Source of the DNA: Acidobacteriota bacterium
Lineage (GTDB): Bacteria > Acidobacteriota > Thermoanaerobaculia > Multivoradales > UBA5704
Length of the DNA: 64,000 bases
Reading direction: 5' to 3'
NCBI GenBank assembly: GCA_040005235.1
Contig: JBDTZG010000019.1
Location: forward strand, 1-64,000
A model generated the notes under the pieces. It made no database searches. It was not told the DNA's origin and saw only the letters and a program-made list of their open reading frames with translations. This document shows positions 49,548 through 56,420 of the stretch, piece after piece. Position 1 is the first letter of the stretch, and every line of letters starts with the position of its first letter. The position numbers and the translations under genes were made by a program.

Positions 49548-51506
49548 ATGCGTACCTACGAGGATTTCGAGCTGTGGATCTCCGCCGAGGGGGAGGGTGC
49601 CGGTTATCGCGTTCGCGCCAAAGAGGCGGGGGAGTCGCGGTTCGACTTGGATGTGGAAGACCTCCGCGAGAAGGCACGATGTCTTGCAGAGGCTTTCGGG
49701 GGAAGGGATTCCCTCCAGGCCAAGACCCTCAAGGAAGCGAAGGATTTCGGGAGCGTCCTCTTCCGAGCGATCTTTCCTCTGCCGATCTACGGCAAGTGGC
49801 GGGAGGCCCGAGCGCGCAGAGGTTTCACGAAAAAGAGCGTGCGCCTAAGCCTCCATTTCGATCGAGCCGGTTCTCTCGCCGGCCTTCCCTGGGAACTTTT
49901 GTTCGACGGCGAACGATTCTTCTGTCTCTCAGCCGAAACGCCGATCGTTCGCCATCCCGAATTTTCGGCCTCGGCCGAGACCTCTCCCGCCAGACGGCCT
50001 TTTCGATTGCTGGCGGTTCTCCCGGAGCCGCTTCGGCAGGAGGATTTGGACGGTCACGGTGAGCTTCTGGATCTTCAAAAAGAGCTGGCCGCGAGGATTC
50101 AAGAGGGTTCGGTCGTCGTCGAGTCGCTTGAGAAGCCGAGCTTTCGCGGCCTCTTGGAGCGGCTCAAAGCGGATCCTCCGGTTCAGGCTCTCCATTTCGC
50201 CGGACATGGTGAAGCCCTTCCCGAGTTCGGCGACGGAGCGTTGTGCCTGGAGAGAGAGGGACGGGTTCGCTATTCCGATTCGGTGCCGGGTTACGCTCTG
50301 GCTCCGATCCTCTCCGACGCCAAAGATCTGCGGTTCGTCTTCCTCAACGCGTGCGAAGGCGGTCGCAGCGCATCGATCGAGGATCCGGGAAACCTCGCGC
50401 ACCGCCTCCTCGAAGCCGGCGTGCCCGCCGTGCTGGCTTTGCAAACTCCGATCGGCAATCGGGCGGCCAAGATCTTCAGCCGGATTTTTTACCATCTGTT
50501 GGCCAAGGGTTGCCCTCTCGAAGAGTCGGTCGCCGCCGCGCGGCAAGCCCTGCAATCCGGAGAGTTCGGTCTCGCCTGGGCTTCGCCCGTGCTGTATCTA
50601 CGGTCATCCATCGGCCAGGTCATTCGGCCAAAGTATTCTTGGCGGCGAATCATCCTTTTCGGATCGGTATTGATCATCGCGCTCGGGATTGCGCTGGCTG
50701 CCTTCGAGGGCAGGCGAATCTACGAACGATTGATCCATGCCGCACGGCCTCATTCGCTGGCACGTCGTACCGCGGATCCCGCCTGCCCTTCGCCGCGCGG
50801 TCTCGACTTTGCGTTCGTGAAGATCCCAGCCGGCGAATTCAAGATGGGCGCTCCCGCTCGACGCGGGGATCGCTCAACGGAGCGGCCGGCGCACGAAGTA
50901 AAGATCACAGAAGGATTTTGCATTGGTGGGTACGAGGTCACCGAGGCCCAATACAACGCGGTGCTCACCGGAGAAGACGCCCCGACGAGCCCCGGCTTCG
51001 ACGTGCCGAAAGTCAGCGTGACGTGGAACGAGGCCCACGACTTCGTGGTGAAACTGAACGAGCGCGATCCTGGAGGGTACTACCGCTTGGCGTGGGAAGC
51101 GGAGCTCGAATATGCGGGCCGCGCCGGAAGCTCAGCGGCATTCATCCGCGGTGACAAGGAGGAGGATCTCAAATATCAGGCCAATTGCCTGGACACTGAC
51201 ACTGAGGATGGCTACCCTAAGATCGCGCCCATCGGCTCGTTCGGTCCCAACAAATGGGGCCTTTACGACGTGCACGGCAACGTCGGAGAGTGGGTCGCGG
51301 ATCGGTTCGCCCCTTACTCTCCCGATGGTGAGCCGTTGATCGATCCTCAGGGGCCGGCCACGGGAACCGATCGGGTGCGGCGGGGAGGAAGCTTTCGGAC
51401 GAACGCAAAGAACTGCGCAGCGTGGAGCCGGAAGTCCTCAGAACCCGGTCGCCGAAGTGACGACCTCGGTTTCCGGATTGCTCGCTCGCCGAAAGCCGGC
51501 GCCTAG
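49548..51506 (+). CDS. CHAT (caspase-like) domain + TM + FGE/SUMF1-like domain protein
   Basis: LPWELL, HFAGHG and FLNACEG; TM IILFGSVLIIALGIALAAF; F.MG, YEVT, GLYDVHGNVGEW, RGGSF, LGFR. Confidence 0.9.
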   Translation: MRTYEDFELWISAEGEGAGYRVRAKEAGESRFDLDVEDLREKARCLAEAFGGRDSLQAKTLKEAKDFGSVLFRAIFPLPIYGKWREARARRGFTKKSVRLSLHFDRAGSLAGLPWELLFDGERFFCLSAETPIVRHPEFSASAETSPARRPFRLLAVLPEPLRQEDLDGHGELLDLQKELAARIQEGSVVVESLEKPSFRGLLERLKADPPVQALHFAGHGEALPEFGDGALCLEREGRVRYSDSVPGYALAPILSDAKDLRFVFLNACEGGRSASIEDPGNLAHRLLEAGVPAVLALQTPIGNRAAKIFSRIFYHLLAKGCPLEESVAAARQALQSGEFGLAWASPVLYLRSSIGQVIRPKYSWRRIILFGSVLIIALGIALAAFEGRRIYERLIHAARPHSLARRTADPACPSPRGLDFAFVKIPAGEFKMGAPARRGDRSTERPAHEVKITEGFCIGGYEVTEAQYNAVLTGEDAPTSPGFDVPKVSVTWNEAHDFVVKLNERDPGGYYRLAWEAELEYAGRAGSSAAFIRGDKEEDLKYQANCLDTDTEDGYPKIAPIGSFGPNKWGLYDVHGNVGEWVADRFAPYSPDGEPLIDPQGPATGTDRVRRGGSFRTNAKNCAAWSRKSSEPGRRSDDLGFRIARSPKAGA

Positions 51507-51919: not shown

Positions 51920-52914
51920 TCTTCCTCCGCGGCGGCGCTCTCGACCACGCCTCGAAACAGCCGCTCCGCCACCAGGTAGGGATCGACCCGCTCGGCGAAG
52001 CCCGCTTCGACCGCTCGTTCTACACCGACCACCCGGTCGGCGGCGGCGATCACCCGCTCTTTCAAGATCGTCTCGACCCGCAGGCGCAGGTGCGACAGGC
52101 GCCGGGCGGCGAGGTTGCCGCTGGTGCTCAGAAATTCGCGGTGGCGCTCGATCGCCGCGATCATCGCGTCGAGCCCCTCGTCGCGGCTTGCGACGGTGCG
52201 GACGATCGGCGGCACCCACTCGCCGTGCTCGCCGAGAGAGAGCATCATCTCCAAATCGCGCTGCGAGCGATCCACCCCGTCGCGGTCGGCCTTGTTGATC
52301 ACGAACACGTCCGCAATCTCCATCAGCCCCGCCTTGATCGCCTGAATGTCGTCGCCCAAGCCCGGCACGGTGACCACCACGACCGAATCGACGCTGCGGA
52401 CGACATCCACCTCGTCCTGGCCGACGCCCACGGTCTCGACCAGGATCCAGTCGAAACCCGCCGCATCCAGCAGGTCGATCGCGTCGCGCGTCGCGCGGGC
52501 CAGGCCCCCCATGTTGCCGCGGGTCGCCATCGAGCGGATGAACACCCCCGGGTCGGTGTAGTGGCCCTGCATGCGAATCCGGTCGCCTAGCAAGGCGCCC
52601 CCGGTAAACGGGCTGGTCGGATCGACCGCCAGCACCGCGACCGTCTCGCCGCGCGCGCGCAGGTGGCGGGTCAAGCGATCGACCAGAGTGCTCTTCCCCG
52701 CGCCCGGCGGGCCGGTCATGCCGACGACGCGGCCGTGGCCGGTCTGCGGATAGAGCCGGGCGACCAGCTGACGCTGATCGGGTCCGCCGTCTTCGAGCAG
52801 CGAGATCGCCCGCGCCAGAGAGCGGGGCTGGCGGGTCAAAAGCCGTTCGATCAGGGCGTCGAGATCTTGCGGACCCCGCGCGCGCACCGGCCGGTGCGGT
52901 GAATCCGGCGTCAT
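51916..52914 (-). CDS. meaB: Methylmalonyl-CoA mutase-associated GTPase MeaB
   Basis: GPPGAGKST, AVDPTSPFTGGALLGDRIRM, ETVGVGQDE, GDDIQAIKAG. Confidence 0.95.
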   Translation of the reverse strand: MTPDSPHRPVRARGPQDLDALIERLLTRQPRSLARAISLLEDGGPDQRQLVARLYPQTGHGRVVGMTGPPGAGKSTLVDRLTRHLRARGETVAVLAVDPTSPFTGGALLGDRIRMQGHYTDPGVFIRSMATRGNMGGLARATRDAIDLLDAAGFDWILVETVGVGQDEVDVVRSVDSVVVVTVPGLGDDIQAIKAGLMEIADVFVINKADRDGVDRSQRDLEMMLSLGEHGEWVPPIVRTVASRDEGLDAMIAAIERHREFLSTSGNLAARRLSHLRLRVETILKERVIAAADRVVGVERAVEAGFAERVDPYLVAERLFRGVVESAAAEEE

Positions 52915-54062
52915 CCCTGACCTTTGAGCACGCCGCGGGCGATCACCAGCCGCTGGATCTCACTGGTCCCCTCGCCGATGGTGCAGATCTTCGCGTCGCG
53001 GTAGTACTTCTCGGCCCGGTAATCCTTGATGAAGCCGTAGCCGCCATGAATCTGCACGCCGCGCTCGGAGCAGAACACGGCGGCCTCTCCGGCGTAGAGC
53101 TTCGCTTCCGAGGCGAGCTGCGAAAACTTCTGCCCGCGGTCGTTCGCCTCGGCCGCGGCGAAGGTGAGGATCTCGGCCGCGGCGATCTTGGTCGCCATCT
53201 CGGCCAGATGGAACTGCACCGCCTGAAACGACGAGATCGGCTTGCCGAACTGCTCGCGCTCTTTGGAGTACTTCAAGGCCGTCTCATAGGCGCCGATCGC
53301 GGTGCCGAGCCCCAAGGCCGCGATCGAGATCCGGCCGCCGTCCAAAATCGCCAGCGCCTGCTTGAACCCCTCGCCGGGTGAGCCGAGCAGGTTTTCGTCC
53401 GGCACGAAGCAGTCTTCCAGGATCACCTCCGTCGTGTCCGAGGCGCGGATACCGAGCTTGTTCTCCTTCTTCCCCGGCCGGAATCCGGCCATCCCCTTCT
53501 CGACCACGAAGGCCGACATGTGGCTGCCGCGCTTCGCCTCAGGGTGGGTGACCGCCATGATCACGAAGGTATCGCCCACCGAGCCGTGGGTGCAGAACGC
53601 CTTCGACCCGTTGAGGACCCAGCCGCCGTCCACTTTCTTACCGTTCGTCCGCGCGGCGGCCGCATCCGACCCGGAGCCCGCCTCGGTCAACCCCCAGGCG
53701 GCAATCTTCTCGCCGCTCGCGAGCGGGGTGACCCAGCGCTTCCGCTGCTCTTCGTTGCCGAACTTGTAGATGTGGTTCGTCCCCAGCGAGTTGTGGGCGG
53801 CGATCGAGATGCCGACCGAAGGATCGACCTTCGACAGCTCGGTGATCACCAGCACGTATTCGAGATAGCCGAGCCCCGCGCCGCCGTACTCCTCCGGGAA
53901 GATGACCCCCAGAAAACCGAGCTCGCCGGCCTTCCGGATCACCTCGCGCGGGAACTTCTGCTGCTCGTCGATCTCATCGACGATCGGGTCGATCTCGCGC
54001 AGCGCAAACTCGCGCGCGGTGTCCCGAATCTGAACCTGCTCGGCCGAAAGGGCGAAATCCAA
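52911..54062 (-). CDS. Acyl-CoA dehydrogenase
   Basis: LTEAGSGSDA, KLGIRASDT, LDGGRI, QIHGGYG and IGEGTSEIQR motifs; AGGAG RBS before TTG54062. Confidence 0.95.
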   Translation of the reverse strand: MDFALSAEQVQIRDTAREFALREIDPIVDEIDEQQKFPREVIRKAGELGFLGVIFPEEYGGAGLGYLEYVLVITELSKVDPSVGISIAAHNSLGTNHIYKFGNEEQRKRWVTPLASGEKIAAWGLTEAGSGSDAAAARTNGKKVDGGWVLNGSKAFCTHGSVGDTFVIMAVTHPEAKRGSHMSAFVVEKGMAGFRPGKKENKLGIRASDTTEVILEDCFVPDENLLGSPGEGFKQALAILDGGRISIAALGLGTAIGAYETALKYSKEREQFGKPISSFQAVQFHLAEMATKIAAAEILTFAAAEANDRGQKFSQLASEAKLYAGEAAVFCSERGVQIHGGYGFIKDYRAEKYYRDAKICTIGEGTSEIQRLVIARGVLKGQG

Positions 54063-54295: not shown

Positions 54296-54301
54296 TAAAA
54301 T
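54296..54301 (+). promoter_or_regulatory. Candidate sigma70 -10 element (TAAAAT) just upstream of the palindromic array
   Basis: TAAAAT in a GC-rich genome; no convincing -35 element seen. Confidence 0.35.
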
Positions 54302-54316
54302 ATGCCGTCCCTGCGG

Positions 54317-54486
54317 CGGGGAACGCTTCCCTGGTCCAGAGATCTGTTCTCCAGACCAGAGAATCATTCTCTGCCGCAGAGAATCTTTCCCTGCATCGAA
54401 GAAACATTCTCTAGAGTAGAGATAGAATCTTTGTACCAGAGAGTCATTCCCTGAGCCAGAGAACCGTTCCCCGCGCCAGGGAGCGC
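54317..54486. repeat. Array of 8 (+1 partial) palindromic units with exact 20-bp period, consensus CAGRGAAnnnTTCYCTGnnn
   Basis: Units start at 54317, 54337, 54357, 54377, 54397, 54417, 54437, 54457 and 54477, with no indels. Confidence 0.9.
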
Positions 54487-54526
54487 TAATATCCACGCCA
54501 TCGCCCCTATCGGGAGGAGAGCGCCG

Positions 54527-54892
54527 ATGTCCCACGGAACGTACGCTGAACAGCTCGAAAGTTGGCGAATTCTGGTCAACAACCTCGAATCGAAGATCGA
54601 TAACGTCCCCCAAGCCGCAGCCGATCGTGCCGAGCTCCGAAAGCTGACCGACGAGGTGCAAAGGCTCTCCGCAGAAATCGAGGTCGCCAGCGGCCAGCTC
54701 CGAATCCTCACCGACCGCCGCCGCAAAGCAGCCCATGCTGCCCGCCAGAAACGCCTCCTGATAGCAGCCCACCTCCAGGGCCACTTCGGATTCGACCACC
54801 CCGGCCTCCTCTCCTTCGGCATCGAACCCCGAGCCCGGAAGAGGCGGGCCAAGAAGGCGAAGCCGAGTGGGGAAGGGACTCCAGCCGGATAG
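54527..54892 (+). CDS. Hypothetical 121-aa helical/coiled-coil protein with a basic C-terminal tail
   Basis: GGGAGGAG RBS; heptad-like core; LQGHFG....LLSFGIEP motif; RARKRRAKKAK tail. Confidence 0.85.
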   Translation: MSHGTYAEQLESWRILVNNLESKIDNVPQAAADRAELRKLTDEVQRLSAEIEVASGQLRILTDRRRKAAHAARQKRLLIAAHLQGHFGFDHPGLLSFGIEPRARKRRAKKAKPSGEGTPAG

Positions 54893-54999
54893 CGCCCCGC
54901 CTCAGGTGTGCTCCTCCTGGGACCGGGCATGTGAAGCCGAGAGGGGAAGGGACTCCAGTCGGCTAGCTCGCCGCCTCAGGCGTGCTCCTCCTGGGACCG
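54859..54999 (+). repeat. 67-bp imperfect direct repeat x2 (54859-54925 and 54933-54999)
   Basis: GAAGCCGAGWGGGGAAGGGACTCCAGYCGG.TAGC...CCGCCTCAGGYGTGCTCCTCCTGGGACCG in both copies. Confidence 0.9.
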
Positions 55000-55061
55000 C
55001 CGGCGTCTCGCCGGCGCAACGCCTCAACGGCGACAGGCGCCGAACGCGGCCAGAAGCGGCG

Positions 55062-55286
55062 CTAAAAGCCTCGGCGTAGCCGGATACCTTCCGGTTGCGC
55101 AGCGTAAGCCAGCGCGGCAAGCATTTCGTCGCGGGTCAGGTCGTATTCCTTGGCCACCTCTTCGAAGGCCATACCGCCGCCAAGCTTGCCGATTACCAGA
55201 TCCACTGGAACTCGAGTTCCCTGGATCACCGGCCGCCCGAAGCGGACGCTTTCATCGACGCTGATGCGGGGGGCGATCTGGATCAT
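55062..55286 (-). CDS. DUF433 domain protein (antitoxin-like), orphan
   Basis: RISVD..VRFGRPVIQGTRVPV..V...L..G....E....Y.LT.....AAL.YA. Confidence 0.9.
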   Translation of the reverse strand: MIQIAPRISVDESVRFGRPVIQGTRVPVDLVIGKLGGGMAFEEVAKEYDLTRDEMLAALAYAAQPEGIRLRRGF

Positions 55287-55622: not shown

Positions 55623-55907
55623 TCACCAGGTCACGCCCTTCTTCTCTACCGGAAACAGCTTCCGTTCCGAGAGCCGGTCTTCATCCAAAACTCGAATCAG
55701 GTATTCGCCGGTCTCCTTCTGCTCTTCTGCATCCCCGTGGTTGATCCACGAGTCGAACAATGCCGAGAGCGCAGCGGCTCGGTTCTCTACCGGTATTTGG
55801 CTCTCGAGGAGGGTTAGTGTGTACTGCTCAACCGGCAGGCCTTGGTCGGCGGCGAGTTCGGTCAGGCGTCGCTCCAGACTAGGAGTCAACTCAAGAGTAA
55901 GGGTCAC
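55623..55907 (-). CDS. Putative antitoxin (RHH-like N-terminus), orphan
   Basis: GGAGG RBS before GTG55907; LTLELTPSLERRL...A...G..VE; acidic EEQKET..YL...LDEDRLS.RKLFP. Confidence 0.65.
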   Translation of the reverse strand: MTLTLELTPSLERRLTELAADQGLPVEQYTLTLLESQIPVENRAAALSALFDSWINHGDAEEQKETGEYLIRVLDEDRLSERKLFPVEKKGVTW

Positions 55908-56420
55908 AGGACACCTCCGAAGGGCGGATCCCAATAGCCCGGTCGATTCTAGACCAGCGCGCCGCCCCCTGCCTCAAGATGCTGCGATTTTAACAGGCAT
56001 TGGCGGAGGCTAGGTCCCATCGTCGCGGCTTTCCCCGGGACCGCCGAGCACCAGCTCGGCCCGGTCGTCGAGCGGCCTCCTGTGCCGAACCGTAGGCCTA
56101 CCATTTCGCTTCCATATCGCCAGCCCTGGGACCGCCAGCTTCCTCGCTGGCGCTTCGCCCCGCTCGATTCTAGCAGTCCTTGCCGGAAGCCTGGGCGGTT
56201 GCTGCTTTCTCCCGAGGCCGCAACCGCTCGGCACCTGGCAGCGCCCCCATCCTGGCCTTCCCCCGGCTCCAACCGGCCCCCTCCCCGGGGGAAGGGACGC
56301 TACGTTCGGCGGCGGTGGCCGATGAGGCGAAAAGCAGCCGAGCTGGTGCTCGGCGCGCCCGGGGAGAAGCTCCCTTCGGCGAAAGACTTCGGCTCTGCGG
56401 GTCGTTGGTGCGCCCTCGCC

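Follow-up and report, generated by a model that had tools for sequence, protein, structure and literature searches.

A strictly phased dyad array upstream of a small basic helical protein gene in an Acidobacteriota genome, and its relatives across the chromosome

The DNA analyzed here (the window) is a stretch of 64,000 nucleotides of contig JBDTZG010000019.1 from an Acidobacteriota soil bacterium, whose 6.22-Mb genome is referred to as G000, and coordinates are positions in this window unless a contig is named. An intergenic region of the window, between divergent genes for an acyl-CoA dehydrogenase and for an uncharacterized protein of 121 amino acids, holds an array of palindromic (dyad) units that directly precedes the small gene (Table 1). 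In what follows, labels in G stand for genomes, in C for contigs, and in L for loci.

Table 1. Coordinates of the array, the small gene, and surrounding features in the window
Feature	Position	Strand	Remarks
Left AT-rich terminal box TAAAAT	54296..54301	.	Immediately 5' of the first half-site
Lone right-type half-site GTCCCTG, array opener	54307..54313	.	GTCCCTG/GTCCTTG at the same place in G003, L054, L055, G007
Eight dyad units, yrGrGA-N5-TCyCyr, with variable 3-nt linkers	54317..54473	.	Tandem Repeats Finder, repeat finder, motif scan
Odd unit TAGAGATAGAATCTTTG (GATAGAATC center)	54417..54433	.	Kept in all orthologous loci
Terminal left-type half-site CAGGGAG	54477..54483	.	CAGRGAA at -50 in six of six loci
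TAATAT box, putative -10 element for the small gene, right-hand terminal box of the array, or both	54487..54492	+	Conserved spacing
Ribosome-binding region GGGAGGAGAG	54512..54521	+	Upstream of the 121-residue open reading frame
121-residue basic (isoelectric point 10.4), all-helical protein with disordered Lys/Arg tail	54527..54892	+	Member of an uncharacterized family
74-nt tandem duplication	54846..54993	+	Copies the last 15 codons of the small gene and 27 nt after its stop; 84-91% identity between copies
GC-rich palindromic element of about 30-35 nt (CTCCTCCTGGGACCGCCGGCGTCTCGCCGGCG)	54971..55023		At least 20 other genome sites (blastn-short; C67, C118, C5, C60, C12, C8, and others)
DUF433 antitoxin-like gene	55062..55286	-	Downstream of the module
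ParD/HicB-like small gene	55623..55934	-	Downstream of the module
Divergent acyl-CoA dehydrogenase gene	52911..54062	-	Pfam; putative start at TTG 54062 behind GGAGATCAGGA; a neighbor, not part of the module
652-residue open reading frame	49548..51506	+	By eye, CHAT-type protease domain, membrane segment, and C-terminal SUMF1-like (formylglycine-generating-enzyme) domain; a crude gene caller favored an open reading frame on the opposite strand

The array and its conservation

The array spans 54307-54483 and consists of eight full 17-bp dyads at an exact 20-bp period, bounded by one half-site at each end. The initial annotation, made from the letters alone, had described eight units with a strict 20-bp period and no indels, and all of these were found, with starts at 54317, 54337, 54357, 54377, 54397, 54417, 54437, and 54457. 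It had also listed a partial ninth unit, which is the terminal half-site CAGGGAG, the TAAAAT box on the left, and the ribosome-binding site of the open reading frame (ORF) at 54527-54892, all of which are present, and it had missed the additional half-site GTCCCTG that opens the array. The ORF is intact, with a GGAGG site upstream. This extra half-site at the left end makes it equally valid to divide the array into nine complete TTCYCTG-NNN-CAGRGAA dyads. Tandem Repeats Finder (TRF) reports a period of 20 across 54357-54479, and a repeat finder returns seven copies at 20/40-bp spacing. The array is beyond chance expectation. A genome scan for the 17-bp consensus, which the same annotation had proposed, gives four matches to the strict motif, every one of them within the array, and a two-unit pattern gives five matches, again all within it; a loose version of the motif has 95 matches in the genome, of which eight are the eight units and the remainder are scattered singly. 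The G+C content is 0.535 for the array compared with 0.659 for the genome. As had been stated from the start, this is not a CRISPR array, in which repeats of 25 to 40 bp would alternate with unique spacers of similar length, whereas here 17-bp units are joined by 3-nt linkers at a 20-bp period.

Relative to the gene, the proximal end of the array keeps a constant position. Between the last half-site and a TAATAT-type box, which lies 35 to 40 nt before the ATG, there are 3 bp, and in six orthologous loci this box reads TAATAT, TAATTT, CATTTT, or GTATTT at a fixed distance. Boxes of the AAAATA/AAATAAG type occupy the place equivalent to that of the TAAAAT box in orthologous loci. The eighth unit covers the place expected for a -35 element, and the array spans the -35 and spacer positions.

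The 121-residue ORF has close relatives in three of the seven other genomes of the genus (59 to 75% identity), and none was found at E ≤ 1e-25 in 84 genomes of ten other genera; an ortholog-alignment search of metagenome contigs added two loci. At each of the five other orthologous loci there is an array of this kind whose register with the start codon is unchanged, with 7 to 12 units that start at -50, -70, -90, and so on, and with offsets of at most 1 nt; the exact register is held down to 59% protein identity. In the 54 full units of the six loci, positions G3, G5, A6 and T12, C13, C15 carry 1.55 to 2.0 bits, and each of the five central and three linker positions carries 0.2 to 0.5 bits. 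In five loci the odd unit stands at -110, and in G001 it is displaced upstream by one unit, to -131; the changes in unit number among orthologous arrays are distal to it. Its retention in all six loci indicates that units are individually inherited and conserved and are not homogenized.

Among the pairs that the two halves of each unit could form, 107 of 378 (28%) are not Watson-Crick, 45 of them being A·C and 29 G·T, and since both kinds of mismatch are present, neither strand is favored. The variable paired positions do not covary (odds ratio 0.85 for positions 4/14 and 0.69 for positions 2/16, Fisher p = 1 for both), which argues that the half-sites are read independently, as by a protein. 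Judged from these alignments, selection acts on independent half-sites rather than on hairpins. In the genome as a whole, TRF rows number 72 at period 20, 10 at period 19, 14 at period 22, and 8 at period 23, with periods of 21 and 40 to 42 also abundant, and the fact that arrays without sequence relation share a period of two B-DNA turns points to a constraint at the level of DNA, namely binding on one face.

A family of array-linked paralogs and a population of gene-less arrays

The AlphaFold model of the 121-residue protein (predicted local distance difference test score 87) has helices at residues 6-26, 28-87, and 92-97, followed by the disordered Lys/Arg tail, and no predicted strand. G+C at third codon positions is 0.73 for the small gene compared with 0.84 to 0.87 for its core neighbors. 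A single-protein search for related loci in a collection of genome contigs found none; tblastn followed by an iterated hidden Markov model search gave 27 matches in this genome, 24 of them full length, so that the module, which the initial annotation had taken as unique, is one of about two dozen here. The family members are all basic (isoelectric points of 8.1 to 11.2) with Lys/Arg/Ala/Pro tails, and each of the 24 full-length paralogs has a strong AGGAG-type ribosome-binding site in front of it. When 1.84 billion cluster representatives were searched with a profile, 1334 clusters matched at E ≤ 0.001 and 620 matched at E ≤ 1e-10, almost all of them 110 to 170 amino acids long. Within the same taxonomic family, 17 of 18 genomes have from 4 to 47 matches each; none of 12 genomes from the other families of the order has any, and none was found at E ≤ 1e-8 in 300 further genomes sampled evenly from the phylum, where 14 candidates per genome were scored and sensitivity was accordingly lower. 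Searches of Pfam, NCBIfam, and PHROGs with the protein and 29 aligned members, and a PDB sequence profile search, gave no meaningful relative, and fold searches returned only generic helical hairpins and coiled-coil-like noise (Foldseek against PDB, E ≥ 7; VIA-align, Z ≤ 7.0). The ESM Atlas returned Acidobacteriota clusters only, with DUF6261 at 0.76 as a lead below the tool's own bar.

The link between family genes and arrays was scored by autocorrelation, as a 20-22 or 40-44-bp periodic window with a match of at least 0.5 within 450 bp upstream. A periodic array lies upstream of 16 of the 23 scorable full-length family genes, compared with 29 of 1437 control genes, a 35-fold enrichment. The 24th full-length gene has its array cut by a contig end, the arrays at C69 and C99 are degenerate as judged by eye, and no array lies within 450 bp downstream of any of the 24. 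Periodic arrays are thus present in the flanks of homologous genes, a feature on which the initial annotation had staked its proposal of an array and protein module. The printed upstream regions show that each paralog has its own array of different sequence, with motif types in common between close paralogs, many of them being variants of GGAA...TTCC with different spacing. At 24 loci from other genomes inspected by eye, an array lies upstream in 11, a conserved upstream coding region in 8, and neither in 4, and one locus is cut by a contig end.

Genome wide, 106 TRF array loci were counted (periods of 19-23 with at least 3.5 copies, or of 39-46 with at least 3 copies) and grouped into classes by shared 9-mers. 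Thirteen of these are located within long genes, where they probably encode heptads. Heptad coding was rejected as an explanation of the 21-bp arrays, as periods of 20, 22, and 41 bp are common and most arrays are intergenic, and so was an integron attC-like reading, as the arrays differ between cassettes. Seven classes have at least three loci, and six of them (19, 17, 6, 5, 5, and 3 loci) each hold exactly one array linked to a family gene. Given a private array class per paralog together with gene-less copies, each paralog behaves as the cognate "master" gene of one class. The array class of the window is itself a singleton in G000. Its three-unit pattern occurs in 4 of 92 genomes of the family (G000, G003, G007, and G066), of which the first three hold the ortholog and the last matches through a different GGGGAGGGCTTCCCC motif; none of the four same-genus genomes without an ortholog contains it, and the copy of the array in G001 is too degenerate for the strict pattern. 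G003 holds, in addition, a second, gene-less array of the window's class, with an inverted copy of the AT box closing each end.

The gene-less arrays lie beside all kinds of housekeeping genes, and the convergent setting is over-represented among them (29 of 75 arrays, compared with 356 of 1601 long intergenic gaps). No common flanks or target-site duplications were seen around them. For example, the place upstream of an aminotransferase gene is taken by a 13-unit array of one class in G000 and by an array of a different class in G003, and four other genomes have no array there. Arrays also stand at the ends of 18 contigs. From this placement and variation between genomes, the arrays behave like a dispersing repeat population. 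In a small and related sample, three family-positive genomes, which represent three genera, have 7 to 8 arrays per 400 kb, compared with none per 400 kb in one family-negative genome of the order and 2 weak ones per 200 kb in another.

Interpretation of the array

We read the array as a cooperative operator lattice for the adjacent protein, with dispersal of gene-less arrays resembling that of repetitive extragenic palindromic (REP) sequences and REP-associated tyrosine transposases (RAYTs), and we would put the probability of this reading at about 0.5. The half-sites rGrGA/TCyCy alternate in orientation every 10 bp, so that successive sites all face the same side of the helix. The best candidate for the ligand would be the small, basic, coiled-coil-like protein encoded directly downstream, which may bind the half-sites as a symmetric oligomer and polymerize cooperatively along one face of the DNA. 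The TAATAT/TAATTT/CATTTT box would be the -10 element, and since the array comes up to this putative element and extends over the -35 and spacer positions, its occupancy should set the activity of the promoter, presumably through repression in a negative autoregulatory circuit. Array, promoter, and gene would together make up one of about two dozen paralogous modules in the genome. The initial annotation had offered a DNA lattice for cooperative binding as the first of two options, and this is favored by the conservation of half-sites, the freedom of linkers, periods that center on 20 to 22 bp in dozens of arrays without sequence relation, and the occurrence of arrays upstream of family genes and rarely of controls; that the adjacent protein is the binder, which it had added as a possibility, is what we would infer from the same comparisons.

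Several findings weigh against this reading. The protein matches no known DNA-binding family or fold, and the part of it that is best conserved, AHxGFxNPxLxxFGIRP, occurs alike in paralogs whose arrays differ and so cannot be the specificity element. Co-duplication of a gene and its array would give the pairing of class with paralog without any binding. In addition, 44 of the 106 arrays (about 40%) are in classes without a linked family gene, and the gene-less arrays (29 convergent, 28 tandem, and 18 divergent) are not promoter-specific. The full-length paralogs C10, C123, C109, C18:226979, and C82 are without an array and often stand behind a Pterin_4a-like gene. Finally, a consensus promoter scan of the region found no full sigma-70 site.

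If the protein does bind the array, its family would be a new one among DNA-binding proteins, and the code would be unusually easy to read, because dozens of natural protein-site pairs per genome, with sites repeated 7 to 20 times in phase, would allow the specificity rules to be derived by comparison alone, and the pairs might then serve as orthogonal parts. There is a substantial chance that the pairing of array and protein is a DNA-recognition system of a new type, and a literature search found no description of such arrays or of the protein family. More tentatively, the whole may amount to a private DNA-addressing system in one acidobacterial family, in which each paralog (up to 47 per genome) reads its own class of phased 20-22-bp dyad arrays by way of an architecture unrelated to known ones, and in which REP-like spread is combined with modular promoter control, insulation, or chromosome organization.

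Unlikely is the account in which the arrays are self-propagating intergenic repeats like REPs and the REP doublets forming hairpins (REPINs), the small protein being a class-specific master or maintenance factor and not a regulator. The array upstream of the gene would then be its "home" copy and gene regulation would be secondary, and the two accounts overlap in that both need the array to be recognized by the protein. Several classes do have many gene-less copies (19 and 17 loci) and one gene-linked copy, and the features of a dispersing population described above, namely gene-less arrays without common flanking sequence, an excess between convergent genes, a housekeeping promoter with different classes or none in different genomes, arrays at contig ends, and the gene-less array of G003 with its inverted AT boxes, all suit this account. 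Its logic also fits that of RAYTs, each of which is tied to one REPIN type in the description by Bertels and Rainey (PMC3337134). Against it, a helical protein of 120 amino acids has no HUH/Tyr or other catalytic signature and no transposase match, and the arrays lie on one side of the gene only. Moreover, the window's class is single copy in G000, and yet its exact register has been retained in orthologs with as little as 59% protein identity, a pattern suggestive of selection for a local function.

It is improbable that the array is a promoter-upstream element read by some other factor, or by way of phased DNA bendability, with the small gene merely tending to sit behind it. This would suit a protein without a recognizable DNA-binding domain, the arrays that adjoin many unrelated housekeeping genes, and the 44 arrays whose class has no linked family gene. 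However, the array sequence differs from paralog to paralog, so that one common factor cannot read them all; base-specific conservation of G3, G5, and A6 is not expected from curvature alone; and the 35-fold upstream enrichment and the pattern of one master per class would be left unexplained.

The second option of the initial annotation, in which a transcript of the array would work as RNA (a leader or a small RNA that can form hairpins in alternative registers), found no support and now seems highly improbable. On paper the palindromic units give stable folds (-83 kcal/mol for one strand and -98 kcal/mol for the other), and in three paralogous modules the array lies between Pterin_4a-like and family genes on the same strand, where co-transcription would be possible. 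On the other side stand the 28% of within-unit pairs that are not Watson-Crick and do not covary, while the invariant positions are uninformative on pairing. Rfam gave three matches only, all to microRNA models and at 22 to 29 bits against thresholds of 91 to 117 (the best being 29 against 91), so that none comes near its gathering score. A period of two DNA turns across unrelated arrays has no RNA rationale, and the putative -10 box lies downstream of the array.

That the array, lying as it does within the intergenic region between two divergent genes, is the operator of the divergent acyl-CoA dehydrogenase/MeaB operon, an alternative which the initial annotation had itself raised, is barely credible, since three same-genus genomes (G002, G004, and G005) have the dehydrogenase gene with its conserved 5' region and neither array nor small gene, G006 has lost the array along with the 5' part of the small gene, and the array adjoins the ribosome-binding region of the small gene at about 245 bp from the putative dehydrogenase start. 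Loss of the array together with the small gene in all four genomes indicates that the array goes with the small gene. In G006 (contig C19, locus L101), a relic consisting of only the last ~35 codons of the small gene (…HFGFDHPGLLSFGIEPRAPKKRAKKAK…) is joined directly to the upstream region of the dehydrogenase gene, which in the window is followed by MeaB.

Known systems and neighboring genes

The system resembles ParR-parC and omega in principle and REPIN-RAYT in population structure, and it is a member of neither, as it has no NTPase partner, no predicted ribbon-helix-helix, no HUH transposase, and arrays on one side only. As in the REPIN-RAYT system set out in PMC3337134, the palindromic units fall into classes that are each tied to one adjacent gene, and the gene-less copies are intergenic, often between convergent genes. 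The differences are that the arrays here are long and strictly phased in tandem, with 7 to 20 units at 20 to 22 bp, and lie upstream of the gene only, whereas the repeats flank RAYT genes on both sides; that the master is a 120-residue helical basic protein and not an HUH tyrosine transposase, models of Y1_Tnp and other transposases giving no meaningful score for any of the 29 aligned family members; and that a genome here has up to 47 master genes as opposed to 1 to 3. Alongside RAYT-REPIN, this would be a second case in which each class of a repeat population has its own master gene, here one for a non-enzymatic protein, and how and why such populations persist could be tested directly in a new system.

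In the type II ParR-parC system and in the type Ib systems of omega, ParG, and ParB, the array lies upstream of the gene and includes its promoter, and a small protein coats it cooperatively and autoregulates; the centromere repeat of pSK41 is 20 bp. PMC3074162 describes binders of the ribbon-helix-helix type and extended or superhelical partition complexes. The likeness to ParR-parC and omega is one of working principle, tandem repeats lying over the (here putative) promoter of the small protein's own gene. No ParM- or ParA-type NTPase was found next to family genes in a Pfam scan of the window neighbors and 89 paralog neighbors. The protein, unlike ParR, omega, and ParG, is predicted to be all-helical, without an N-terminal ribbon-helix-helix strand, and matches no ribbon-helix-helix family. 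Also unlike plasmid partition, about two dozen modules are carried here by the chromosome of one genome, and gene-less arrays occur all over it.

Plasmid iterons (P1, F, RK2, and pSC101) are direct repeats of 17 to 22 bp, about two helical turns apart, beside the gene of their binder. By analogy, the sites here also lie at about two helical turns and adjoin the gene of a putative binder, though the units are dyads and not directional repeats. No Rep family match, such as to a winged-helix initiator, was obtained for the protein or its neighbors, and about 100 arrays on one chromosome cannot all be origins.

H-NS, MvaT, Lsr2, PhaF, PhaM, and AlgP are small proteins with an N-terminal coiled-coil-like part, a short conserved C-terminal element, and after it a Lys/Ala/Pro-rich tail, and are often encoded in variable islands. 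The family is similar to the H-NS/MvaT/Lsr2 group and to histone H1-like tails in size, composition, coiled-coil-like part, tail, and island location. No Pfam or NCBIfam match to H-NS, Lsr2, or MvaT was obtained, and the fold matches were generic helical ones, with which a distant relation would be compatible. Proteins of the H-NS type differ in that they read AT-rich DNA loosely, without private, phased, sequence-specific arrays.

The neighbors of the paralogs are diverse, with no conserved operon partner, and include many toxin-antitoxin genes (PIN, BrnT, HigB, MazE, AbiEii, and DUF433/DUF5615), so that the modules sit in variable islands. The window's module region is itself a variable spot, with DUF433 and ParD-like genes of the antitoxin type also present. 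The GC-rich palindromic element that overlaps the 74-nt duplication downstream of the small gene (Table 1) is a separate REP-like dispersed repeat.

Among six genes that resemble Pterin_4a (PCD/DCoH), five stand directly upstream of a family gene or its array on the same strand (C52:8228-8494, C59:71247-71516, C123:12267-12548, C10:20632-20871, and C69:23542-23802 of G000), and the best-scoring copy (C116) alone stands apart from family genes. Similar coding regions stand upstream, as judged by eye, at 8 of the 24 loci from other genomes. By gene order, the DCoH-like protein and the helical protein form a conserved gene pair, which hints that the former may be a cofactor for some members, by analogy with DCoH for HNF1. 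In several subfamilies, a short GC-rich hairpin with an ATTCC/ATTTC loop (e.g., GACCGC-ATTTC-GCGGTC) lies about 10 to 25 nt before the ribosome-binding site (C10:20541-20600, C127:240-300, C107, C126, and C8:55813-55880 in G000); it is found in array-type and Pterin_4a-type contexts alike, and the gene of the window has no obvious copy. Finally, at C10:22334-25444 in G000, a 19-unit array of the C127 class precedes a gene for an 860-residue AAA_16/TPR (STAND-type) NTPase; next on that strand come a Pterin_4a-like gene and a family gene, the latter having the C127 master gene as its closest paralog.

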